DNA of 64,000 bases from Escherichia coli (GCF_003334785.1 NZ_QOWV01000002.1), one strand, 5' to 3'; shown: positions 1 to 50,908, counted from the stretch's first letter. Numbers and translations are program-made. The notes: generated from the sequence alone by a model not told the origin.

Positions 1-50
1 TTCAGTTCCAGTTGGGCGTTATCCGCCAGCCACGGTAATTCCTTGTCCAT
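1..50 (-). CDS. yehI: 5' end (first ~16 codons) of the gene downstream of molR, truncated by the window edge; yehI-like
   Basis: Reverse complement of 1-50 reads ATG GAC AAG GAA TTA CCG TGG CTG... (MDKELPWLADNAQLEL) with AAGGAA Shine-Dalgarno just upstream; gene identity is from position relative to molR only. Confidence 0.4.
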   Translation of the reverse strand, partial: MDKELPWLADNAQLEL

Positions 51-59
51 GCTCTTTCC

Positions 60-3000
60 TTATTCAAACAGGGCTTCAATATCGTTAATTAGCTCGCTGG
101 CGGTGATGGCATCGATTACGGAGAACTGCGCTTCCTGTGTTGAATTACTCCCCCAGCCATATCTTTCTGCTTTGCCTTCCCATAGCCACAGCTTGCTTAA
201 GAGCTGCTCAGCGCTGAGTTCGGCTGGCGACATGCCTACCGCAAAGCCTTCATCGATTTCCATGATTAACGACCAGCGACCCAAAGGTTTGATCATCCAT
301 CCGATCCAGCCTCCATCCTGTGGTTCGCCCTTTATCCAGCCTTTATTCGCCAGCCCCATGACCCGACCACTCGGGCATTTTCTGCCTGCCCAGCGGGTCA
401 GTTCACTGGCATTGCGCTCGGCTTCTGTCAGGGCGTAGCTGTTACGGTCGAGCTGGCGGAACGGTGGTAGCAGTTCGTAGTCGGCAAAAAGCTGACCAAA
501 GGCGGCAGCATCCGTTGGTGATATTTCCAGAACGTGAGGAGTGCCGATAGAGATATCGCCTTCCGGCAGGGTGAAAAGATCATCGTCAGCGGTGCTGGAG
601 CTGTTATCTTCTGCTACGCGAAAGCAAGCCAGTAGCTGGTTTTCGGCGCTATAAACGCCCCAAATCAGACGGCGGGTTAAGTGACGAACCAGCGGATGCT
701 CAACCAGGAAGAGCTGGAAGTTTTCCAGCGACCAGCGGCGGCGCAGGCACATGGCGGATTCCAGCCTTGCTACCTGCTGGGCGGCGATGGTACGCGCATC
801 TTTTTTCAGCAATTTGTAGCGGTTAACCGCATCGTTCGCCCGCGTTTCATCATCGCTTTTGTTCGGTTTGGGCAGGTCTTTCAGGCGGCTGCCGGAAACA
901 TCACGCACAAACGGTTTTAAGGTTTCATCAAAGCTGACGGTGAACTGCCGTGGGCCAAAATCCAGCAGCAGCGAACCGTTATCATCCAGACCGAGATCCG
1001 GTGCTAACCGATCTTCAAGCTCCGCCACCGTGAGTTCGCGGCTCTCGGCAATGTCGGCAATTTTTTCTTTTGCCCGCTCCTGTAATGCTTTGAATTTCAG
1101 TTTCTGGGCGATGCCGTTAAGCTGCATAAGGGCGATATCACTACCGATAGCAGCGAGAATATCCAACCCAACGGTGGCGCGTTTATGCTGGGATTCACCA
1201 GGCCAGGCGCGTATTAATGGCGTCAGTTTGCGGGCGGTGTCATCGTTACCGAGAACGCCTAACGCAGTGAACGCCCAACTCTCTTTCGACGGCGCGCCAG
1301 CGGTCTGCCAGGCGGTAAACAGATCCCAGGCAAATCCCGCCAGTGAGTCGGCGGAACAGACGTCTTTCACCTGCAATAATCCCGGATACAGAGCCTCTTC
1401 CTGAGGGAAGCGGAGCATTTCACCGAGGTGGAGGAGGGCGCTATCTGGCAGTGATTGGGCATTTGCTTTTAATACCGGGCGCGTCCAGAGCGATGGCTGA
1501 TAAAAGGCCGGAAGAGTGGGGATTTTTGTCGGGTGATTATCTAAGGGATCGAGCGCAAGCAGAGCGTTCACCGCATCGGTTACTTCCGGCTGGTTATAAC
1601 GTCGGGCGATTTCTTGCAGTAATGGCTGATGACCGTTTTCGGTAAGCATACGCAAGGCAGCGCGGGCGTTATCCTGTGCTTCACCGGCTTTGCCGAGCGC
1701 CGCAGGCAGCAGGCCGGTAAGGGCATGTTCCGGGTATTTCAACAGCCAGCTACGGGCGTTTTCGCGTAGCGTTTTCAGTTTGTTGAAGGCACGGGCGACG
1801 GCAGGAGCCAGCTCACTCGCTGCGAAGTAATTCGTGATGGGCAAGGCTTCTTGTGGATAGCGTGCAAGTGAGTTTACTAACCCAGGTAACCCTTTGAGTC
1901 CAAAATGTAACATGGAGTATTCGGTATCGGTATGTGGAGATAGGGTAAGGGCATTCCATGCTTTTACTGCTTTCTCCAGCGGCAATGTTGTCAAAATCCC
2001 CAACTGCCAATAATGCCCGGTAGGTGAATGAAACACCTTAAATTCACTTAGTAAGGTTGAATAATCTTCATTTAGCCATGCCTCAACTACCGCTTCGGGA
2101 GCTTTAATATATGTACCAGCGATCCGTCGTTGAAAACCCATCCTTGCCAACAGGTTGGTAGTACTTTCTTCATGGCTAACCGTGATGTGTTTTGAATACC
2201 AGATATATTTCGCCAAAAGTTGATTACTGATTTCTTCTGTCAGATAACAGATTGGCTCAATGCCTAATGGCGCTAAATCCAGCACCGGAATCGGCGATTT
2301 TTTCTTTTTCGAAAGCCAGGGAGGGGAGACTACTACGGCTGGCAGTAGATCGGCGCTGGCATGGTTTGAGGGCTGTGTCAGTTGTTGCTGGCATGATTTC
2401 AGTACGGCAACTGCGGGTGTCGAGAGCCAGGGAATGACCTGTTCTGCCAGTGCTGGTTGTGAGATAAGCATTGTCATTAGCATAATGCGCCAACTGTTCT
2501 CTTCTTTTTGCCCAAGAAGTTCCGTCAGTGCCGCCATTGCTGCATGTGGGAACGCAGCAATGGCTTTCGTCATCCGATCGTGACAGCGTTTAGTTTGCCC
2601 GGCTACACGTATAAGCAGTGTCAATGCGAACGGATGATTGATATGACGCAACACATCGGCGCAGTAGTCACTTGCGGCATAGGGAGCAAATCGGGGCAGG
2701 GCTGCAACACCTTGCTCCTGTAATACGGTGGCTGACCATATCGCACCACAATAGTAATCATCAAAAATGGCATATGGTTCGTGATATTTTTCTAATGAGG
2801 CAAGAATGTGCTCATCAGTCGCCACTATTTTTAACCACTCAAGCGAGGGTAATTTTTTTTGCCCCAGTAGACGCTGGGCAATTTCATGTGCAATTTCTGG
2901 TTTTTCGGGTAATAACAAAGCAATTAATGGTTGCCGCCATTCTGGAATATGTGGAATTGCGGCAATAAGTTTTTGTGCACATTTTTGCCAGAGAGACTCT

Positions 3001-3854
3001 TCCGTCAGTGATAAATGTTTACGTAGGCGTAATTCAAATCTGGAATATTGCTCCAAGTAGCTAGGTGCAATGCCAGACGGCAGAATAATAATGACATTAT
3101 TCGCATAATCCCATTCAATATCAATCTGTTGAAGGTGTATTATTACATCAGTAGCATATTCCAGACCGCCTTCCTGGACGATCTGATCCATAACATCCTC
3201 ACGCACTTTATATCTTGTGCATTTCATTTCAAGTGCCGTGAGTACAGCCATTACTGGTGATGGTAACTGTGTTGTTTTCAGGCCGTCGATCTGACTGATC
3301 GCCTGGGCGACGGTGTTTTGCCATTCTAAAGAACAGGCGCTGAAGTCAAATGTGGCTGTTTTATTATCCCGTTGCGACACACTACAGGCTAAGCGACGTA
3401 ATTGGGTCAATTTGTCTGCTTGCTGAACAGGAACTCCGGGAAAGCGGCGATGACTTAACGTGGTGTGTACAACTTCGGGCGGAAAAACGACAGCAATATC
3501 TTTCGCCAGCCACGGTAAAACAGCATCTGTATTTTTGTCAGGCGCACGGGTTTCTGCTACGAAAGAGGGTTGTTCCTGAATAATGGTGGATAAGTCCGCT
3601 ACCTTGAGAGAGCCCGTTACCGTTTGGGAAGGTTGCAAAGAATTATCCTTCGCTTGCTCCACATACCCCTTCTTCACCTTCTCCGCAATCAGCTTAAGTT
3701 CCGCTTTTTCCGCTGCCGCAGCATCTGAAAAACTTTTTATCTGACTTTGCCCTTTGGTGCCAACTTTTCCCCAACTGATATGCAACTCGTTTCCCTGTTG
3801 CTCCACCGCCCAGAATTTATGTGATTTTTCGTCCTGATAGATAAAGTGTCTCAT
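60..3854 (-). CDS. molR: MolR, large WGR-domain protein (1264 aa), apparently intact
   Basis: Single uninterrupted 1264-aa ORF; N-terminus MRHFIYQDEKSHKFWAVEQQGNELHISWGKVG is WGR-like; position immediately next to metG. Confidence 0.8.
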   Translation of the reverse strand: MRHFIYQDEKSHKFWAVEQQGNELHISWGKVGTKGQSQIKSFSDAAAAEKAELKLIAEKVKKGYVEQAKDNSLQPSQTVTGSLKVADLSTIIQEQPSFVAETRAPDKNTDAVLPWLAKDIAVVFPPEVVHTTLSHRRFPGVPVQQADKLTQLRRLACSVSQRDNKTATFDFSACSLEWQNTVAQAISQIDGLKTTQLPSPVMAVLTALEMKCTRYKVREDVMDQIVQEGGLEYATDVIIHLQQIDIEWDYANNVIIILPSGIAPSYLEQYSRFELRLRKHLSLTEESLWQKCAQKLIAAIPHIPEWRQPLIALLLPEKPEIAHEIAQRLLGQKKLPSLEWLKIVATDEHILASLEKYHEPYAIFDDYYCGAIWSATVLQEQGVAALPRFAPYAASDYCADVLRHINHPFALTLLIRVAGQTKRCHDRMTKAIAAFPHAAMAALTELLGQKEENSWRIMLMTMLISQPALAEQVIPWLSTPAVAVLKSCQQQLTQPSNHASADLLPAVVVSPPWLSKKKKSPIPVLDLAPLGIEPICYLTEEISNQLLAKYIWYSKHITVSHEESTTNLLARMGFQRRIAGTYIKAPEAVVEAWLNEDYSTLLSEFKVFHSPTGHYWQLGILTTLPLEKAVKAWNALTLSPHTDTEYSMLHFGLKGLPGLVNSLARYPQEALPITNYFAASELAPAVARAFNKLKTLRENARSWLLKYPEHALTGLLPAALGKAGEAQDNARAALRMLTENGHQPLLQEIARRYNQPEVTDAVNALLALDPLDNHPTKIPTLPAFYQPSLWTRPVLKANAQSLPDSALLHLGEMLRFPQEEALYPGLLQVKDVCSADSLAGFAWDLFTAWQTAGAPSKESWAFTALGVLGNDDTARKLTPLIRAWPGESQHKRATVGLDILAAIGSDIALMQLNGIAQKLKFKALQERAKEKIADIAESRELTVAELEDRLAPDLGLDDNGSLLLDFGPRQFTVSFDETLKPFVRDVSGSRLKDLPKPNKSDDETRANDAVNRYKLLKKDARTIAAQQVARLESAMCLRRRWSLENFQLFLVEHPLVRHLTRRLIWGVYSAENQLLACFRVAEDNSSSTADDDLFTLPEGDISIGTPHVLEISPTDAAAFGQLFADYELLPPFRQLDRNSYALTEAERNASELTRWAGRKCPSGRVMGLANKGWIKGEPQDGGWIGWMIKPLGRWSLIMEIDEGFAVGMSPAELSAEQLLSKLWLWEGKAERYGWGSNSTQEAQFSVIDAITASELINDIEALFE

Positions 3855-3994
3855 TCTGCATCCCTGTAATTTTATCCAGTTGAATGCAGATGCTACCAGT
3901 ATTTATGCGGGTTAGAGAGAGACAAAATCGCAAGAAAACAACTTTAGGAATTTATAAAGAAAAGGCGCTGTCGATGCAGCGCCTTGAAGGGGGA

Positions 3995-6028
3995 TTATTT
4001 CACCTGATGACCCGGTTTAGCACCAGCATCCGGGCTTAGCAGGAAGATATCTTTCCCGCCTGGACCGGCAGCCATCACCATGCCTTCGGAGATTCCAAAG
4101 CGCATTTTACGTGGTGCCAGGTTAGCCACCATAATGGTGTGACGACCAATCAGTGCCTGCGGATCCGGGTAGGCAGAACGAATACCGGAGAAGACATTGC
4201 GTTTTTCACCGCCGAGATCCAGTGTCAGGCGCAGCAGTTTGTCAGAACCTTCAACAAACTCTGCGTTTTCGATCAGCGCTACGCGCAGGTCAACTTTGGC
4301 GAAGTCGTCAAAGGTGATGGTTTCCTGAATCGGATCATCTGCCAGTGGGCCAGTAACTGGCGCGGCAGCTGCTTTCACTTCTTCTTTAGAGGCTTCCACC
4401 AGAGCTTCAACCTGTTTCATATCGATGCGGTTATACAGCGCCTTGAACGGATTCACTTTGTGGCCCAGCAGCGGTTGCTGGATACCATCCCAGGTCAGTT
4501 CCGTATTGAGGAAGGCTTCTGCACGCTCGGTCAGTTTCGGCAGTACCGGCTTCAGGTAAGTCATCAGCACGCGGAACAGGTTGATGCCCATTGAGCAAAT
4601 CGCCTGCAGGTCAGCATCGCGACCTTCCTGTTTTGCGACTACCCACGGAGCCTGTTCATCGACATAGCGGTTAGCCAGATCAGCCAGCGCCATGATTTCG
4701 CGCACAGCTTTACCAAATTCACGGCTTTCCCACGCTTCACCAATCACTTCAGCGGCATCAGTGAAGGTTTTGTACAACTGCGGGTCAGCCAGTTCGTTTG
4801 CCAGCACGCCGTCAAAACGTTTGTTGATAAAGCCCGCGTTACGGGAGGCCAGGTTAACCACTTTGTTAACGATATCGGCATTCACGCGCTGAACGAAATC
4901 CTCCAGGTTGAGATCGATATCATCAATGCGCGAAGAGAGTTTCGCAGTGTAGTAGTAACGCAGGCTGTCAGCGTCAAAATGATTCAGCCAGGTGCTGGCT
5001 TTAATAAAGGTGCCGCGAGACTTGGACATCTTCGCGCCGTTCACCGTCACATAGCCATGAACAAACAGGTTGGTCGGCTTGCGGAAGTTGCTGCCTTCCA
5101 GCATGGCAGGCCAGAACAGGCTGTGGAAGTAAACGATATCTTTACCGATGAAGTGGTACAGCTCGGCGGTGGAGTCTTTCTTCCAGTATTCATCGAAGCT
5201 TACGCTGTCGCCGCGCTTGTCGCACAGATTCTTGAAAGAACCCATGTAGCCAATCGGTGCGTCCAGCCAGACGTAGAAATATTTGCCCGGCGCGTTCGGA
5301 ATTTCAAAACCAAAGTATGGCGCGTCGCGGGAGATATCCCACTGTTGCAGGCCGGATTCAAACCACTCCTGCATTTTATTTGCCACCTGCTCCTGCAACG
5401 CACCGCTGCGGGTCCATGCCTGCAACATTTCGCTGAAAGAGGGCAGATCAAAGAAGAAGTGTTCAGAATCACGCATTACCGGCGTAGCGCCAGAAACCAC
5501 CGATTTCGGCTCGATCAATTCAGTCGGGCTGTAGGTCGCGCCGCAGACTTCGCAGTTATCGCCGTATTGATCCGGGGATTTACATTTCGGGCAGGTGCCT
5601 TTCACAAAACGGTCCGGCAGGAACATGCCTTTTTCCGGATCGTACAGCTGAGAGATGGTGCGGTTTTTAATAAAACCGTTCTCTTTCAGGCGAGAGTAGA
5701 TAAGTTCTGACAACTGGCGGTTCTCTTCGCTGTGCGTCGAGTGATAGTTGTCATAGCTGATGTTAAAGCCTGCGAAATCAGTCTGATGCTCCTGACTCAT
5801 TTCGCCAATCATCTGCTCCGGGGTGATACCAAGCTGCTGAGCTTTCAGCATGATCGGTGTACCGTGGGCATCGTCGGCGCAGATGAAGTTGACCTCGTGG
5901 CCGCGCATTCGCTGGTAACGGACCCAGACATCAGCCTGGATGTGCTCCAGCATATGGCCGAGGTGGATTGAGCCGTTAGCGTACGGCAGTGCGCACGTCA
6001 CCAGAATTTTCTTCGCGACTTGAGTCAT
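3995..6028 (-). CDS. metG: methionine--tRNA ligase
   Basis: Translation [31 protein letters not shown]... with HIGH-type motif (HLGH), KMSKS motif and C-terminal tRNA-binding domain; start moved to ATG at 6026-6028. Confidence 0.95.
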
Positions 6029-6159
6029 AGTAGGCATTACTTCTTAATAGTGAAAAGGGGTTAGATAGTACCAAATGGGAAAATGTTAAGTAAGTACTTC
6101 TCTATATTCTTCAGGTAAACTATCAGCTGATGGTTTATCTATACAAAAAAGGAGTCGGG

Positions 6160-7269
6160 ATGAACGAACAATCCCAGGCCAAATCACCAGAAGCCTTGCG
6201 CGCAATGGTCGCCGGGACACTGGCCAATTTTCAGCACCCAACCCTGAAGCATAACCTCACCACGCTGAAAGCGTTGCACCATGTCGCCTGGATGGACGAC
6301 ACGTTGCATGTGGAACTGGTTATGCCGTTTGTCTGGCATAGCGCGTTCGAAGAGTTAAAAGAGCAATGTAGCGCCGAACTGCTGCGCATCACCGGGGCGA
6401 AAGCTATCGACTGGAAACTGTCGCATAACATAGCCACTCTGAAACGCGTGAAGAATCAGCCGGGAATTAACGGTGTGAAGAACATTATCGCGGTGAGTTC
6501 CGGTAAAGGCGGCGTGGGTAAATCGTCCACGGCGGTAAACCTGGCACTGGCGCTGGCGGCAGAAGGGGCGAAAGTCGGCATTCTGGACGCCGATATCTAC
6601 GGCCCATCAATCCCAACAATGTTGGGCGCAGAAAATCAGCGTCCAACTTCGCCGGACGGTACCCATATGGCACCGATTATGTCTCATGGCCTGGCAACCA
6701 ATTCAATTGGTTATCTGGTCACTGACGACAATGCGATGGTGTGGCGTGGACCGATGGCGAGCAAGGCGTTAATGCAGATGTTGCAGGAAACCTTGTGGCC
6801 GGATCTCGACTATCTGGTGCTTGATATGCCGCCAGGCACCGGTGACATTCAATTGACGCTGGCGCAAAACATTCCAGTAACCGGTGCAGTCGTGGTCACC
6901 ACCCCGCAGGACATCGCGCTGATCGATGCGAAAAAAGGCATTGTGATGTTCGAGAAAGTCGAGGTTCCGGTGCTCGGTATTGTCGAGAACATGAGTGTGC
7001 ATATTTGCAGTAACTGTGGTCACCATGAACCGATTTTCGGTACCGGTGGTGCAGAGAAACTGGCTGAAAAATACCATACACAGCTGCTGGGGCAGATGCC
7101 GTTACACATCTCCTTACGTGAGGATCTCGATAAAGGTACGCCAACGGTTATCAGCCGTCCGGAGAGCGAATTTACCGCTATCTACCGCCAGCTGGCTGAC
7201 CGCGTTGCAGCTCAGCTCTACTGGCAGGGTGAAGTCATTCCAGGCGAGATTTCCTTCCGCGCGGTCTAA
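6160..7269 (+). CDS. apbC: Fe-S cluster carrier ATPase Mrp/ApbC
   Basis: MNEQSQAKSPEALRAMVAG...; P-loop SGKGGVGKS; GGAG Shine-Dalgarno before ATG at 6160. Confidence 0.9.
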   Translation: MNEQSQAKSPEALRAMVAGTLANFQHPTLKHNLTTLKALHHVAWMDDTLHVELVMPFVWHSAFEELKEQCSAELLRITGAKAIDWKLSHNIATLKRVKNQPGINGVKNIIAVSSGKGGVGKSSTAVNLALALAAEGAKVGILDADIYGPSIPTMLGAENQRPTSPDGTHMAPIMSHGLATNSIGYLVTDDNAMVWRGPMASKALMQMLQETLWPDLDYLVLDMPPGTGDIQLTLAQNIPVTGAVVVTTPQDIALIDAKKGIVMFEKVEVPVLGIVENMSVHICSNCGHHEPIFGTGGAEKLAEKYHTQLLGQMPLHISLREDLDKGTPTVISRPESEFTAIYRQLADRVAAQLYWQGEVIPGEISFRAV

Positions 7270-44874: not shown

Positions 44875-45729
44875 ATGGCAAAAAAAGTCTCAAAATTCTT
44901 TCGTATCGGCGTTGAGGGTGACACCTGTGACGGGCGTGTCATCAGTGCGCAGGATATTCAGGAAATGGCCGAAACCTTTGACCCGCGAGTCTATGGTTGC
45001 CGCATTAACCTGGAACATCTGCGCGGCATCCTGCCTGACGGTATTTTTAAGCGTTATGGCGATGTGGTCGAACTGAAGGCCGAAAAGATTGACGATGATT
45101 CGGTGCTGAAAGGCAAATGGGCGCTGTTTGCGAAAATCACCCCGACCGATGACCTTATCGCGATGAACAAGGCCGCGCAGAAGGTCTACACCTCAATGGA
45201 AATTCAGCCGAACTTTGCCAATACCGGCAAATGTTATCTGGTGGGTCTGGCCGTCACCGATGACCCGGCAAGCCTCGGCACGGAATACCTGGAATTCTGC
45301 CGCACGGCAAAACACAACCCTCTGAACCGCTTCAAATTAAGCCCTGAAAACCTGATTTCAGTGGCAACGCCTGTTGAGCTGGAATTTGAAGACCTGCCTG
45401 AAACCGTGTTCACCGCCCTGACCGAAAAGGTGAAGTCCATTTTTGGCCGCAAACAGGCCAGCGATGACGCCCGTCTGAATGACGTGCATGAAGCGGTGAC
45501 CGCTGTTGCTGAACATGTGCAGGAAAAACTGAGCGCCACTGAGCAGCGCCTCGCTGAGATGGAAACCGCTTTTTCCGCACTTAAGCAGGATGTGACTGAC
45601 AGGGCGGATGAAACCAGCCAGGCATTCACCCGCCTGAAAAACAGTCTCGACCACACCGAAAGTCTGACCCAGCAGCGCCGCAGCAAGGCCACCGGTGGTG
45701 GCGGTGACGCCCTGATGACGAACTGCTGA
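44875..45729 (+). CDS. O: capsid scaffolding protein (P2 gpO)
   Basis: MAKKVSKFFRIGVEGDTCDGRVISAQDIQEMAETFDPRVYG..., 284 aa, divergent from Q-P. Confidence 0.85.
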   Translation: MAKKVSKFFRIGVEGDTCDGRVISAQDIQEMAETFDPRVYGCRINLEHLRGILPDGIFKRYGDVVELKAEKIDDDSVLKGKWALFAKITPTDDLIAMNKAAQKVYTSMEIQPNFANTGKCYLVGLAVTDDPASLGTEYLEFCRTAKHNPLNRFKLSPENLISVATPVELEFEDLPETVFTALTEKVKSIFGRKQASDDARLNDVHEAVTAVAEHVQEKLSATEQRLAEMETAFSALKQDVTDRADETSQAFTRLKNSLDHTESLTQQRRSKATGGGGDALMTNC

Positions 45730-45787
45730 CCGGCGTCAGTCAGTCCGGGAAAACCTTCACGATTAACCCTTAATTTCAGGAAAAACT

Positions 45788-46861
45788 ATGCGCCAGGAAA
45801 CCCGCTTTAAATTTAATGCCTACCTGTCCCGTGTTGCCGAACTGAACGGCATCGACGCCGGTGATGTGTCGAAAAAATTCACCGTTGAACCGTCGGTCAC
45901 CCAGACCCTGATGAACACCATGCAGGAGTCCTCTGACTTTCTGACCCGCATCAACATTGTGCCGGTCAGCGAAATGAAAGGGGAAAAAATTGGCATCGGT
46001 GTCACCGGCTCCATCGCCAGCACCACCGACACCGCCGGTGGCACCGAGCGTCAGCCGAAGGACTTCTCGAAGCTGGCGTCAAACAAGTACGAATGCGACC
46101 AGATTAACTTCGATTTTTATATCCGCTACAAAACGCTGGACCTGTGGGCGCGTTATCAGGATTTCCAGCTCCGTGTCCGTAACGCCATTATCAAACGCCA
46201 GTCCCTTGATTTAATCATGGCCGGTTTTAACGGCGTGAGGCGTGCCGAAACCTCTGACCGCAGCAGCAATCCGATGCTGCAGGATGTGGCGGTCGGCTGG
46301 CTGCAGAAATACCGCAATGAAGCCCCGGCGCGCGTGATGAGCAAGGTCACTGACGAGGAAGGGCACACCACCTCTGAGGTTATCCGCGTGGGTAAGGGCG
46401 GTGATTATGCCAGCCTTGACGCACTGGTGATGGATGCGACCAACAACCTGATTGAGCCGTGGTATCAGGAAGACCCTGACCTTGTGGTGATTGTGGGACG
46501 TCAGCTACTGGCGGACAAGTATTTTCCCATCGTCAACAAGGAGCAGGACAACAGCGAAATGCTGGCCGCTGACGTCATCATCAGCCAGAAACGCATCGGT
46601 AACCTGCCGGCGGTACGCGTCCCGTACTTCCCGGCGGATGCGATGCTCATCACAAAGCTGGAAAACCTGTCCATCTACTACATGGATGACAGCCATCGCC
46701 GCGTGATTGAGGAAAACCCGAAACTCGACCGCGTGGAGAACTACGAGTCAATGAACATTGATTACGTGGTGGAAGACTACGCCGCCGGTTGTCTGGTGGA
46801 AAAAATTAAGGTCGGTGATTTCTCCACACTGGCTAAAGCGACCGCAGAGCCGGGAGCGTAA
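45788..46861 (+). CDS. N: major capsid protein (P2 gpN)
   Basis: 357-aa ORF following O. Confidence 0.85.
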   Translation: MRQETRFKFNAYLSRVAELNGIDAGDVSKKFTVEPSVTQTLMNTMQESSDFLTRINIVPVSEMKGEKIGIGVTGSIASTTDTAGGTERQPKDFSKLASNKYECDQINFDFYIRYKTLDLWARYQDFQLRVRNAIIKRQSLDLIMAGFNGVRRAETSDRSSNPMLQDVAVGWLQKYRNEAPARVMSKVTDEEGHTTSEVIRVGKGGDYASLDALVMDATNNLIEPWYQEDPDLVVIVGRQLLADKYFPIVNKEQDNSEMLAADVIISQKRIGNLPAVRVPYFPADAMLITKLENLSIYYMDDSHRRVIEENPKLDRVENYESMNIDYVVEDYAAGCLVEKIKVGDFSTLAKATAEPGA

Positions 46862-46864
46862 CCG

Positions 46865-47608
46865 ATGACGAGTCCCGCACAGCGCCACATGATGCGGGTC
46901 TCGGCAGCGATGACCGCGCAGCGGGAAGCCGCCCCGCTGCGACATGCAACTGTCTATGAGCAGATGCTGGTTAAGCTCGCCGCAGACCAGCGCACACTGA
47001 AAGCGATTTATTCAAAAGAGCTGAAGGCCGCGAAAAAACGCGAACTGCTGCCGTTCTGGTTGCCGTGGGTGAACGGCGTGCTGGAGCAGGGCAAAGGTGC
47101 ACAGGATGACATTCTGATGACGGTCATGCTGTGGCGTCTGGATACCGGCGATATTGCCGGTGCGCTGGAGATTGCCCGTTATGCCCTGAAATACGGTCTG
47201 ACCATGCCGGGTAAACACCGCCGCACCCCGCCGTACATGTTCACCGAGGAGGTGGCACTTGCGGCCATGCGCGCCCACGCTGCCGGTGAGTCTGTGGATC
47301 CCCGCCTGCTGACGGACACCCTCGAACTGACCGCCACGGCTGACATGCCTGATGAAGTGCGCGCAAAGCTGCACAAAATCACCGGTCTGTTTCTGCGTGA
47401 CGCTGGTGATGCCGCCGGTGCGCTGGCTCACCTGCAGCGTGCGACACAGCTCGACTGTCAGGCAGGCGTCAAAAAAGAGATTGAACGACTGGAGCGGGAG
47501 CTGAAACCGAAGCCGGAGCCGCAACCAAAAGCGGCCACCCGCGCCCCGCGTAAGACCCGGAGCGTGACACCGGCAAAACGTGGACGCCCGAAAAAGAAAG
47601 CCAGTTAA
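46865..47608 (+). CDS. M: terminase small/endonuclease subunit (P2 gpM)
   Basis: 247-aa ORF with very basic C-terminal tail (KPKPEPQPKAATRAPRKTRSVTPAKRGRPKKKAS). Confidence 0.8.
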   Translation: MTSPAQRHMMRVSAAMTAQREAAPLRHATVYEQMLVKLAADQRTLKAIYSKELKAAKKRELLPFWLPWVNGVLEQGKGAQDDILMTVMLWRLDTGDIAGALEIARYALKYGLTMPGKHRRTPPYMFTEEVALAAMRAHAAGESVDPRLLTDTLELTATADMPDEVRAKLHKITGLFLRDAGDAAGALAHLQRATQLDCQAGVKKEIERLERELKPKPEPQPKAATRAPRKTRSVTPAKRGRPKKKAS

Positions 47609-47647
47609 CAACCGAATGCGCCCCGCGCCAGGGCGGCACGCCGGTCA

Positions 47648-48076
47648 GTGAGGGTGACCGGACTTATTGAATCGCTGTCACCGTCAGGGCGTCGGCGACT
47701 GAGCGCCGAACTGGCGAAACGTCTGCGGCAGAGTCAGCAGCGCCGGGTGATGGCACAGAAAGCCCCGGACGGCACACCCTACGCACCACGCCAGCAGCAG
47801 AGCGCCAGAAAAAAGACCGATCGCGTTAAGCGAAAAATGTTTGCGAAACTTATCACCAGTCGTTTTTTGCATATCCGCGCCAGCCCGGAACAGGCATCAA
47901 TGGAGTTTTTCGGCGGGAAGTCACCGAAAATCGCCAGCGTGCATCAGTTCGGTCTGTCGGAAGAAACCCGGAAAGACGGTAAGAAAATTGATTATCCGGC
48001 GCGTCCTCTGCTCGGCTTTACCGGTGAGGATGTGCAGATGATTGAAGAGATTATCCTGGCTCACCTTGAGCGTTAG
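47648..48076 (+). CDS. late morphogenesis protein; by position gpL (head completion), but the C-terminal HQFG...PARP motif resembles the gpS/virion-morphogenesis family
   Basis: 142-aa ORF starting at GTG 47648 with no ATG in frame upstream; identity as L versus S cannot be settled without a search. Confidence 0.55.
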   Translation: MRVTGLIESLSPSGRRRLSAELAKRLRQSQQRRVMAQKAPDGTPYAPRQQQSARKKTDRVKRKMFAKLITSRFLHIRASPEQASMEFFGGKSPKIASVHQFGLSEETRKDGKKIDYPARPLLGFTGEDVQMIEEIILAHLER

Positions 48077-48106
48077 TTTTATCCAGGCAGAGGCTGATGC
48101 GCAATT

Positions 48107-48140
48107 AAACATTGAGCGCCGTGCTGGTCGCTCAATGTTT
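48107..48140. other. perfect 12-bp inverted repeat (hairpin) at the junction between GC-rich late genes and the AT-rich cargo
   Basis: AAACATTGAGCG - 10 nt - CGCTCAATGTTT; no adjacent T-tract on either strand. Confidence 0.5.
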
Positions 48141-48146
48141 AGAGGT

Positions 48147-48932
48147 TTATGAGTGGTTTTTATTTGATGCTTTGTATTCTAAAACCTTCTTATTGGCGTA
48201 AAAGAATTTTGTATATGACAGGAATATAAGCAGACCTGAAATGAAATAGATTAGGGATATTATTAATAATGTTTTTCTGTGGCTGTTATTATCTTTAATC
48301 TCCTGACTTAACCATTCGGAGTCCTCCTCGTTTAGCTGTAAGAGCTTATTGCAGGCGATCTCAGGAAGTGTGTCTTTTATAAATACGTTTTGCAGACTCT
48401 TGCAATCGGCAAGGCTATAAGTTTTATTAAATTCAACTGTTTTATTTTTGAAGGATAAAAGAACTTTGTCACTATAAACATAGTACATCATATTTTTATA
48501 TGGTATACCTATGGCATCCCTTACTATAGCGGATTGTTCATTGTGTATGTAACATGCGAAGATAATATAAAGAATTCCGGCCAGGACTGCACTCATTGTT
48601 TTTGTGATGCATGGCGGTTCTGTTATGTCTCCCCAGAAGCGAGTAAGGAAAAAATCCGATGTTTTTAGTTTTCCATCAATCAGCCCCTGCTGTATCATTC
48701 TCACATCTTCGATGCCTGATACATTGATTCCGTTAAGTGTTTTAAATAGTTGAATATCGCGCCACTCGCGGTCCAGTCTTTTTAATTTTTTGTCTGAATA
48801 TCCAAATTTGAAATAATGTGCAATAAGCCTCATAAGGTTACTTTTACCAAAGCTAAAAAATGCTAATACTGCAAAGACCAAAAGATACAAAACGATTAGC
48901 TCCCACACATTAGTCACATTATAGCTGACCAT
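48147..48932 (-). CDS. hypothetical membrane protein (261 aa, 3 predicted transmembrane helices), foreign AT-rich cargo of unknown function
   Basis: ORF with strong Shine-Dalgarno (AAGGAGAG 7 nt before ATG); hydrophobic segments WELIVLYLLVFAVLAFFSF, MSAVLAGILYIIFACYI, KTLLIISLIYFISGLLIFLSY; AT-rich codon usage unlike the flanking phage genes. Confidence 0.6.
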   Translation of the reverse strand: MVSYNVTNVWELIVLYLLVFAVLAFFSFGKSNLMRLIAHYFKFGYSDKKLKRLDREWRDIQLFKTLNGINVSGIEDVRMIQQGLIDGKLKTSDFFLTRFWGDITEPPCITKTMSAVLAGILYIIFACYIHNEQSAIVRDAIGIPYKNMMYYVYSDKVLLSFKNKTVEFNKTYSLADCKSLQNVFIKDTLPEIACNKLLQLNEEDSEWLSQEIKDNNSHRKTLLIISLIYFISGLLIFLSYTKFFYANKKVLEYKASNKNHS

Positions 48933-49015
48933 TACGCTCTCCTTGAATGTTGTCTGGTGGTTCTACAAATGAATCCAGATAGCATAACTTTTATATATTG
49001 TGCAATCTCACATGC

Positions 49016-49651
49016 ATGAACACTCTCGCAAATATTCAGGAACTCGCGCGCGCACTGCGCAACATGATCCGCACCGGCATTATCGTTGAAACCGACCTTA
49101 ACGCCGGTCGCTGCCGTGTGCAGACCGGCGGCATGTGCACCGACTGGCTTCAGTGGCTGACCCATCGCGCCGGACGTTCGCGCACATGGTGGGCACCTTC
49201 CGTGGGGGAACAGGTGCTGATTCTGGCCGTGGGCGGTGAACTCGACACGGCGTTCGTTCTGCCGGGGATTTATTCCGGCGATAACCCTGCGCCGTCTGCG
49301 TCGGCTGATGCCCTGCATATCCGTTTCCCTGACGGGGCGGTGATTGAGTATGAGCCCGAAACCAGTGCACTCACGGTAAGCGGAATTAAAACGGCCAGCG
49401 TGACGGCTTCTGATTCTGTTACTGCCACGGTGCCGGTGGTCACGGTGAAAGCATCAACCCGCGTCACCCTGGACACACCAGAGGTGGTCTGCACCAACAG
49501 GCTGATTACCGGCACGCTGGAAGTGCAGAAGGGCGGGACGATGCGCGGCAACATTGAACACACCGGCGGTGAACTCTCATCAAACGGTAAGGTACTGCAT
49601 ACCCATAAACACCCCGGCGACAGCGGCGGCACAACCGGGAGTCCTCTATGA
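49016..49651 (+). CDS. V: baseplate spike/assembly protein (P2 gpV)
   Basis: MNTLANIQELARALRNMIRTGIIVETDLNAGRCRVQTGG..., 211 aa. Confidence 0.85.
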   Translation: MNTLANIQELARALRNMIRTGIIVETDLNAGRCRVQTGGMCTDWLQWLTHRAGRSRTWWAPSVGEQVLILAVGGELDTAFVLPGIYSGDNPAPSASADALHIRFPDGAVIEYEPETSALTVSGIKTASVTASDSVTATVPVVTVKASTRVTLDTPEVVCTNRLITGTLEVQKGGTMRGNIEHTGGELSSNGKVLHTHKHPGDSGGTTGSPL

Positions 49652-49999: not shown

Positions 50000-50908
50000 A
50001 TGCCGATTATCGACCTGAACCAGCTACCCGCACCGGATGTGGTCGAGGAGCTGGACTTTGAAACCATTCTTGCCGAACGCAAGGCGACACTGATTTCCCT
50101 TTACCCGGAAGACCAGCAGGAGGCGGTCGCCCGTACCCTGACGCTGGAATCCGAACCTCTCGTCAAACTGCTGGAGGAAAATGCTTATCGTGAGCTTATC
50201 TGGCGTCAGCGTGTGAATGAGGCCGCACGGGCGGTAATGCTGGCCTGTGCCGCCGGTAATGACCTTGATGTGATTGGTGCCAATTACAACACCACGCGCC
50301 TGATTATCACCCCGGCAGATGATTCGACCCTCCCGCCGACACCGGCAGTGATGGAATCTGACACCGATTATCGTCTGCGTATTCAGCAGGCGTTTGAGGG
50401 CTTAAGCGTCGCCGGGTCGGTGGGTGCCTATCAGTATCATGGTCGCAGTGCCGACGGGCGTGTCGCAGATATCTCTGTCACCAGTCCGTCTCCGGCCTGC
50501 GTCACTATCTCCGTGCTGTCACGTGAAAATAACGGTGTGGCATCCGAAGACCTGCTGGCGGTGGTGCGTAACGCCCTTAATGGCGAGGACGTCAGGCCGG
50601 TGGCCGACCGCGTGACCGTGCAGTCTGCCGCCATTGTTGAATACCAGATAAACGCCACGCTTTACCTTTACCCTGGTCCCGAAAGCGAACCCATCCGCGC
50701 CGCCGCCGTGAAAAAACTGGAAGCGTATATCACGGCACAGCACCGGCTGGGGCGTGACATCCGTCTGTCTGCCATTTATGCCGCTTTGCATGTGGAAGGC
50801 GTGCAGCGTGTCGAGCTGGCCGCACCACTGGCCGACATTGTGCTCAACAGTACGCAGGCGTCTTTCTGCACCGAATACAGCGTCGTGACCGGAGGCTCGG
50901 ATGAGTGA
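50000..50908 (+). CDS. J: baseplate protein (P2 gpJ)
   Basis: 302-aa ORF after W. Confidence 0.85.
   Translation: MPIIDLNQLPAPDVVEELDFETILAERKATLISLYPEDQQEAVARTLTLESEPLVKLLEENAYRELIWRQRVNEAARAVMLACAAGNDLDVIGANYNTTRLIITPADDSTLPPTPAVMESDTDYRLRIQQAFEGLSVAGSVGAYQYHGRSADGRVADISVTSPSPACVTISVLSRENNGVASEDLLAVVRNALNGEDVRPVADRVTVQSAAIVEYQINATLYLYPGPESEPIRAAAVKKLEAYITAQHRLGRDIRLSAIYAALHVEGVQRVELAAPLADIVLNSTQASFCTEYSVVTGGSDE

Follow-up and report, generated by a model that had tools for sequence, protein, structure and literature searches.

Which protein does the molR locus of Escherichia coli encode where the gene is intact, and what might that protein do? We approached this question in a 64,000-nucleotide stretch of E. 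coli DNA (GCF_003334785.1, NZ_QOWV01000002.1; the whole stretch is referred to below as the window), in which molR, also known as yehH, occupies positions 60 to 3,854. That this gene is an intact allele of E. coli molR, whose copy in strain K-12 consists of pseudogene fragments, is practically certain, because the reading frame, the synteny, an identity of 99.8% to the K-12 pseudogene and the presence of WGR and DUF4132 domains all agree. Beyond its identity, the gene is an in-frame hybrid of two tandem paralogues. The explanation that we favour as a whole, an intact hybrid allele whose product acts as an adaptor of a neighbouring protein machine, has in our estimate a probability of about 0.45. 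In E. coli molR is commonly intact, and the K-12 pseudogene is already recorded in databases and literature. What is added here is a two-step decay in K-12, the hybrid origin, a conserved gene neighbourhood of five components that includes variable arrays, a C-terminal module that has no solved relative and an SOS box that is not conserved. These additions give reasonable grounds for studying the function of the locus outside K-12.

The listing of open reading frames (ORFs) gives a single frame of 1264 amino acids at this place, starting with ATG on the minus strand. The first-pass annotation had likewise described one uninterrupted frame of this length, without naming its strand. No other open stretch in the six frames of the window is as long: this one has 1280 codons from stop to stop and the runner-up 832. 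At this base composition, a run of 1264 open codons would occur by chance with a probability of about 5e-27. The protein is 100% identical to a cluster with 7215 member sequences (P0001), and intact MolR proteins of 1262-1264 amino acids are found in clusters with tens of thousands of member sequences. In strain VE-F10 the gene is intact as well, with 1 mismatch to the gene of the window, and is annotated as 'DUF4132 domain-containing protein' (WP_021544687.1). Its upstream neighbour is metG, 140 nucleotides (nt) away, and its downstream neighbour is yehI, an order that is also annotated in K-12 and VE-F10. The ATG of yehI lies 9 nt past the TAA of molR, and the Shine-Dalgarno-like sequence GGAAAGAG spans the gap. 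By megablast, molR has a match in 5420 of 5426 complete E. coli genomes, and in 4011 of them a single place covers at least 80% of the query. ORFs on the plus strand within molR, for example one of 181 codons at 859..1404, look like antisense shadows, and nothing supports them.

The comparison with K-12 shows what the intact allele has been spared. Two observations could have spoken against the assignment, an intact copy in K-12 or a poor alignment to it, and neither was made: the K-12 copy is broken, and its fragments align at 99.8% identity over 3796 nt of MG1655, with 8 substitutions and 1 inserted G. The statement in the first-pass annotation that K-12 molR is split into pseudogene fragments is thus borne out, since a nonsense codon and a frameshift divide the gene into three pieces, leaving open stretches of 274, 682 and 345 codons in the alignment. 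The MG1655 locus is annotated as a pseudogene, 'frameshifted; internal stop'. This molR' (molR_1/_2/_3, b2115-b2117; yehH) shares the metG-yehI locus and an identical promoter region with the window and has been reported as 'disrupted in K12' (PMC3950696). It differs by a TGA at codon 275, an additional G at codon 949 and the exchange W15R, none of which is found in the window. The tryptophan at codon 15 belongs to the near-invariant KFW motif of the WGR domain, a conservation visible in the N-termini of the family. The window as a whole is not K-12 either, with 58 mismatches to MG1655 over 15.9 kb and 8 to VE-F10 over 31.3 kb.

To count the lesions, 61-nt K-12 probes centred on each of them were used, for which only an exact match scores at least 99%, and the 5426 complete genomes were scanned. 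The nonsense allele is present in 706 genomes (13%), including isolates from urine and cattle; in the calf isolate A27 the 3795-nt gene is annotated with 'internal stop' only. The allele with the additional G occurs in 352 genomes, and those listed are laboratory derivatives of K-12. As the stop allele is found in wild isolates and the inserted G among the listed K-12 derivatives, these sequences show K-12 molR to have decayed in at least two steps, in which the stop codon and W15R are older and common to wild relatives and the frameshift appears specific to the K-12 lineage.

Apart from these lesions, the gene carries the traces of a recombination between neighbours. In strains 52148, AR_0086 and O157:H7 F7386, metG is followed by three tandem genes, which we call A (3798-3801 nt), B (3762-3795 nt) and yehI. 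The products of A and B, for example WP_001551344.1 and WP_000860770.1 of strain 52148, are WGR and DUF4132 proteins of about 1265 amino acids, and the two genes are 86-88% identical in their WGR-coding 5' ends and 30-50% in their bodies. The molR of the window is 92.4% identical to B of strain 52148 at the nucleotide level and about 52% to A. The 160 nt upstream of it correspond to the metG-A intergenic region of the three-gene strains, and its first 70 nt have the A-type base at 6 of 6 diagnostic coding sites (7, 8, 11, 15, 69 and 70), followed by B-type bases from nt 110 on (sites 110, 168, 171 and 186). Similarly, the protein begins with MRHFIYQ in the window and in A, and with MKTYIYQ in three B alleles. 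Judged by these sites, molR is an in-frame hybrid that took the promoter and the first 24-36 codons or so from A and the remainder from B, so that the two paralogues are fused to one gene in the window and the body of A is absent. A deletion of about 3.8 kb through recombination within the near-identical WGR-coding 5' ends fits as the simplest origin. Gene A was found in 1651 of the 5426 genomes (about 30%), which makes the fused two-gene state the majority. In K-12 and A27, nt 111, 146 and 156 carry A-like bases where the window is B-like; two of these three sites are also polymorphic among B alleles, and a different crossover or a later conversion could account for them.

The arrangement with three genes is older than the fusion. 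In Klebsiella spallanzanii, copy 1 is closer to A (56-57% identity) than to B (48-49%), copy 2 shares 62-67% identity with B and copy 3 shares 56% with YehI; a cryptic Escherichia also has three tandem copies. By their sequences A and B are far too divergent for a recent duplication, and together with the position-wise orthologues of A, B and YehI in K. spallanzanii this argues for the greater age of the three-gene state. The description of the window's gene as the ancestral intact form therefore holds relative to K-12, as neither lesion is present, and fails at the deeper level, where the gene is a derived hybrid. In Escherichia sp. MOD1-EC7003 the first tandem copy (locus L010, 641-3544) is not A-like, at 42-43% identity, and not clearly B-like, at 50%; lineages seem to differ widely in the gene that opens the array.

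Table 1. Features of the molR locus, with positions counted from the first letter of the window
Feature	Position	Strand	Details
molR (yehH) coding sequence	60..3854	minus	1264 codons + TAA, intact (ORF listing)
WGR domain, residues 6-69	3648..3839	minus	Pfam PF05406, E 3.2e-18
Variable linker, residues 70-147	3414..3647	minus	low to intermediate model confidence
Alpha-helical (HEAT/ARM-like) solenoid, residues ~148-949	1008..3413	minus	AlphaFold model; fast-evolving, AT-richer
Conserved C-terminal alpha/beta module, residues 950-1264	63..1007	minus	contains Pfam DUF4132
DUF4132 (PF13569), residues ~988-1173	336-893	minus	E 3.6e-50, model positions 1-179 of 179
A/B junction interval	3746..3784	minus	gene nt 71-109, codons 24-37; switch of diagnostic sites
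Codon 15	3810..3812	minus	TGG (Trp) in window; AGG (Arg) in K-12 and wild isolate A27
Codon 275	3030..3032	minus	TTA (Leu) in window, TGA in K-12; first K-12 break
Codon 949	1008..1010	minus	additional G in a GG run in K-12, +1 frameshift; second K-12 break
metG-molR intergenic region with molR promoter	3855..3994	minus	140 nt, identical to K-12; precedes gene A in three-gene strains
LexA (SOS) box-like 20-mer	3862..3881	minus	AACTGGATAAAATTACAGGG; 8-27 nt upstream of ATG
Terminator-like hairpin of metG	3962..3985	minus	9-bp stem with 6 GC pairs, then T-run
metG	3995..6028/6037	minus	directly upstream of molR
yehI, first 50 nt	1..50	minus	WGR-less paralogue; runs off the window edge

The encoded protein combines a small recognisable head, a long variable middle and a conserved end. 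The first-pass annotation had noticed a WGR-like domain at the start, and the domain search places the Pfam WGR domain there. At the sequence level only one solved relative was detected, the WGR head of PDB 2ra8 (E 2.4e-17), and most representatives of the family have the same head. WGR domains contact DNA breaks in PARP enzymes. MolR shares the WGR domain with PARP1-3 and with bacterial WGR proteins such as PDB 2ra8 by significant sequence match; it lacks the catalytic domain of PARP1-3 and continues instead into solenoid and DUF4132, and its own DNA binding is a prediction. The linker that follows aligns poorly between alleles and paralogues, with predicted local distance difference test (pLDDT) values of 37-69 over most of residues 1-40 and 71-90 of the modelled fragment. 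The solenoid is modelled with a pLDDT of 90.1 and a predicted template modelling score (pTM) of 0.84. Its stacked helical hairpins and its similarity to known solenoids identify a HEAT/ARM-type alpha-solenoid, which is a statement about architecture and not about homology, as the structural matches are generic solenoids only.

For the C-terminal module of the AlphaFold model no solved structural relative was found. In an alignment of 75 sequences, 14 of 16 invariant columns fall in the last 440 residues or so, W433 and W623 being the exceptions, and the invariant residues within the module comprise several arginines, two histidines and one tyrosine; among them are R969, H1053, H1107 and Y1126, at positions 20, 104, 158 and 177 of the module. 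Between WGR and DUF4132, Pfam recognises nothing in MolR; among the NCBIfam models there is a partial match of the WGR head to an unrelated Leptospira family, far below the cutoff, and the models of Pfam, NCBIfam and PADLOC-DB reveal no catalytic family. YehI is collinear with residues 110-1204 of MolR at 37% identity and has the same solenoid and C-terminal module; it differs in lacking the WGR head and linker and in being somewhat more conserved between strains (92-94% amino-acid identity).

This domain content bears directly on the historical reading, in which MolR is a transcription factor that binds DNA through WGR and controls the uptake of molybdate or the synthesis of molybdoenzymes. 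It is favoured by the name of the gene and by legacy annotations as 'molybdate metabolism regulator' or 'MolR family transcriptional regulator'. Most of the remaining evidence makes it highly improbable. Pfam and NCBIfam find WGR and DUF4132 only, and no helix-turn-helix, Mop/TOBE or other regulator or molybdate-binding domain; known bacterial regulators do not resemble a solenoid protein of 1264 residues that is linked to an AAA+/vWA machine; and the neighbours of the locus in E. coli include no molybdenum genes. K-12, which makes functional molybdoenzymes, has the pseudogene as its only copy. Lee et al. in 1990 reportedly mapped molR to a different map position, and the name may have become attached to this locus in error. 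A review from the Aravind laboratory presents WGR as the DNA-binding domain of MolR-like transcription factors, with Lee et al. 1990 as its source (PMC7824862), which we count in favour of the molybdate function, whereas in Deinococcus the molybdenum genes did not respond alongside the WGR and DUF4132 genes (PMC8533742). The first-pass annotation had called the function poorly defined despite the historical name, and the domain content indeed lends a molybdate regulator no support. The legacy name nevertheless still spreads in annotations.

A different direction is suggested by the genes that accompany the family. After clustering at 50%, 5931 representatives are homologous to MolR at E<=1e-3, and 2615 of them pass E<=1e-30; many cover residues 25-1184 or so of the query. 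Identity to MolR is 39-48% for homologues from outside Enterobacterales. In a profile-guided scan that took one genome from each species, 68 loci were obtained, and partner genes were sought in them by tblastn with the E. coli proteins. YehL was found in 43 of them, YehM in 43, YehP in 40 and YehQ in 41. The order is always the same, 1 to about 10 WGR/DUF4132 genes followed by YehL, YehM, YehP and YehQ on one strand, with gaps down to 15-70 nt. Loci with partners occur in Beta-, Gamma- and Deltaproteobacteria and in an actinobacterial metagenome-assembled genome (Propionibacteriaceae), and most of those without partners either lie on short contigs or are long Massilia arrays that occupy all of the flanking sequence retrieved. 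In several Massilia species (L033, L037, L040, L048, L056, L065) the family has expanded to an extreme degree, with arrays of 7-10 or so tandem WGR/DUF4132 paralogues on one strand, several of them per genome, and often without YehL in the flank that was covered. In the strain of the window the YehLMPQ genes lie outside the window, and annotations of E. coli agree with their adjacency; yehK was seen only in Escherichia among the surveyed loci.

The partners themselves are conserved to different degrees. Identity to E. coli YehL is mostly 71-77% and falls to 56% in the most distant loci, YehP is mostly 61-71% identical, and outside Enterobacterales YehM reaches mostly 42-49% and YehQ 29-39%. 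The AAA+ matches of YehL, to GvpN, MadB and McrB, are weak; YehP is a vWA protein, and vWA matches to NCBIfam were likewise weak; YehM corresponds to DUF5682 (E 3e-97), and YehQ contains weak SWIM fingers. The pair of AAA+ ATPase and vWA protein is familiar from the MoxR systems RavA-ViaA, CbbQ-CbbO, NorQ-NorD and CoxD-CoxE, in which accessory proteins deliver clients to the ATPase. YehL itself is said to give its name to one MoxR subfamily in a 2006 scheme by Snider and Houry. Beyond this common core, the YehLMPQ system comprises YehM with DUF5682, YehQ with its SWIM fingers and at least one WGR/DUF4132 protein. The literature that was searched contained nothing on DUF5682 or on a system of MoxR, vWA, SWIM and WGR proteins.

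We therefore propose, tentatively and with the odds somewhat against it, that MolR may be a variable nucleic-acid-binding adaptor or specificity subunit of a YehLMPQ machine and not a molybdate regulator. The proposal builds on the fast-evolving paralogue arrays that precede a conserved engine, on the combination of a variable solenoid with a conserved C-terminal module, on the WGR head, and on the fact that no catalytic or regulator domain was recognised. By analogy with other WGR proteins, the head would contact DNA or RNA, the choice of client or target would fall to the fast-evolving solenoid, and docking onto an engine of YehL (MoxR-type AAA+), YehM (DUF5682), YehP (vWA) and YehQ (SWIM) would be the task of the conserved C-terminal module. 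In Escherichia, expression would be tied to DNA damage through a LexA box and to BglJ-RcsB. A wider generalisation, which we consider unlikely, is that WGR-solenoid-DUF4132 proteins as a class could be interchangeable, fast-evolving specificity subunits of a widespread but uncharacterised AAA+/vWA/SWIM machine of five components that surveys nucleic acids or nucleoprotein in genome conflict or DNA damage. If it were true, a new class of sensor-adaptors would have E. coli 'molR', under a wrong name, as its founding member, and one route to reshuffling their repertoire would be recombination of neighbouring paralogues, of the kind seen in the A/B fusion.

Several points weigh against the adaptor function. 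The putative link between MolR and YehLMPQ is one of gene order alone, and in E. coli a gap of about 300 nt and the extra gene yehK part yehI from yehL, so that two transcription units may be present. Nucleic-acid binding by the WGR head is predicted from other proteins. In the loci compared below, the LexA box is not conserved, hence DNA damage is no system-wide cue. Finally, molR is often lost or broken in E. coli, which makes its function dispensable there.

How the gene has evolved within the species helps to evaluate this last point. Comparisons of E. coli lineages by the method of Nei and Gojobori gave a ratio of nonsynonymous to synonymous substitution rates (dN/dS) of about 0.22 for molR/B; the values of A (0.23) and yehI (0.18-0.19) are similar, and that of metG is 0.01-0.02. 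Within molR the ratio is 0.04-0.25 in the C-terminal third and at most 0.6 in every block of 100-150 codons. The gene is thus under purifying selection, roughly ten times weaker than that on metG. At the same time inactivation recurs. In O157:H7 F7386 (L005, 1-5975) both A, with an internal stop, and B, with a frameshift, are pseudogenes next to an intact yehI, an inactivation independent of that in K-12. Strain 14EC001 (NZ_CP024127.1), the best DNA match to the molR of the window and otherwise identical to it, has the gene split in two by an insertion of IS1A, and in the ST131 sublineage L1a the blaCTX-M-15 transposon TnMB1860 has inserted here (PMC9334617). In K-12, yehQ, the gene of the SWIM partner (L001, 24627-26627), is also annotated as a pseudogene with an internal stop, and it is intact in VE-F10.

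Taken at face value, these losses suggest that E. coli molR is an evolutionary relic drifting to loss, whose intactness in the window has no functional consequence. The nonsense allele in 13% of complete genomes (706 of 5426), wild isolates included, the paired pseudogenes of O157:H7 F7386, the insertions by mobile elements, the broken yehQ of K-12 and the deletion of gene A in about 70% of genomes are all in its favour. We regard it as distinctly improbable all the same, as a dN/dS of about 0.22 over 1264 codons, with 0.04-0.25 in the C-terminal third, speaks for continuing purifying selection. The tens of thousands of intact proteins of 1262-1264 amino acids, an open frame far beyond chance, and the conservation of family and gene order across phyla argue in the same direction.

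The alleles that persist differ to an unusual extent, and mostly in one half of the gene. The B allele of AR_0086 is a mosaic: over most of codons 1-700 its amino-acid identity to the window is 48-64%, with one block of 100 codons at 77% and with dS saturated in several blocks, whereas codons 700-1264 are 94-98% identical. The GC content is split accordingly, 45-46% in the variable N-terminal-coding half and 54-55% in the conserved C-terminal-coding part. The AR_0086 B protein (L009, 4153-7914) is 88% identical to a copy from cryptic Escherichia (L010, 3545-7318) and about 76% to that of the window, a closeness that suggests trans-species polymorphism or introgression. Together, the A/B hybrid and the very divergent alleles show that this site next to a housekeeping gene is prone to recombination and evolves fast.

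Such variability could also point to a role in immunity. On that account the WGR-solenoid-DUF4132 proteins are diversifying recognition subunits of an uncharacterised system against phages or mobile elements, driven by the YehLMPQ engine; the adaptor architecture is the same as in our proposal, and the biological role differs. Tandem arrays of 1 to about 10 paralogues, an extreme divergence within the species with mosaic alleles closer to cryptic Escherichia than to other E. coli, and a dN/dS of about 0.2 against 0.01-0.02 in metG all speak for it. The repeated independent inactivations (K-12, O157:H7, IS1 in 14EC001, the transposon in ST131), the patchy distribution alongside a highly conserved ATPase and the AT-rich variable half fit it as well. 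Several results set against these make the immune role improbable in our view. None of the seven operon proteins (MolR, YehI, YehK, YehL, YehM, YehP and YehQ) matched a defence model of PADLOC-DB v2.0.0 at E<=0.01, and no effector domain such as a nuclease, protease, TIR domain or pore-former was recognised in them. None of 50,697 phage records contains the C-terminal module. Among 72,556 plasmid records it occurs in 31, most of which are megaplasmids or chromosomes labelled wrongly, so that it is rare on true plasmids. The position beside metG is fixed in the core genome (5420 of 5426 genomes), and dN/dS does not exceed 0.6 in any of the blocks mentioned above.

The promoter of molR has been mapped in K-12, where it is activated by BglJ-RcsB and not repressed by H-NS (PMC3950696). 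The 20-mer upstream of the start codon contains CTG-N10-CAG with an AT-rich spacer at 3864-3879, which fits the SOS box pattern and makes it a candidate LexA site, and molR is found on published lists of LexA-regulated genes with a known SOS box (PMC6590174; PMC11039860). We searched for the same pattern, CTG-N10-CAG with at least 6 A/T in the spacer, from -300 to +60 of the first WGR/DUF4132 ORF in 53 loci of other genera, leaving out the closest relatives (L010, L011 and L015), in which the DNA upstream is truncated. It was present in 2 of the 53, neither of them convincing, and as it is missing in the other 51 we take SOS control to be specific to Escherichia. In Deinococcus radiodurans, one WGR protein and one DUF4132 protein are strongly induced upon depletion of the damage-response repressor DdrO (PMC8533742). 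Across the window CTG-N10-CAG occurs 22 times against 12.1 expected, a number reached in 0 of 100 shuffles; nearly all of these sites are GC-rich and inside genes, and the excess probably reflects the abundance of CTG and CAG codons and not LexA sites.

With both molR and yehQ broken, K-12 is without two components of the system. This helps to explain why an operon that is conserved in thousands of bacterial lineages and listed under SOS control has had no function assigned to it, and it makes strains like that of the window the right background for functional study.

Among the neighbouring features, the longest ORF of metG starts with the ATG at 6037 (680 amino acids), and RefSeq places the start at 6028 (677 amino acids). 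A search of positions 1-6500 of the window against Rfam gave no RNA family. In VE-F10, a triad of yegL (vWA), pphC (PP2C phosphatase) and yegI (protein kinase) lies at 45262-49351 of locus L003, a place beyond the end of the window, and presumably resembles a candidate defence system of the TerY-P type. Further into the window, a segment of about 30.3 kb (31262-61588) is inserted between yegR and yegQ and is absent from the near-identical VE-F10. Its tail region at 50000-60000 resembles P2-like phages (Peduovirus): phage pro483 covers it to 92% at 94.9% identity, and phage P2 matches at 97.5% identity. By these matches the segment looks like a prophage of the P2 family.

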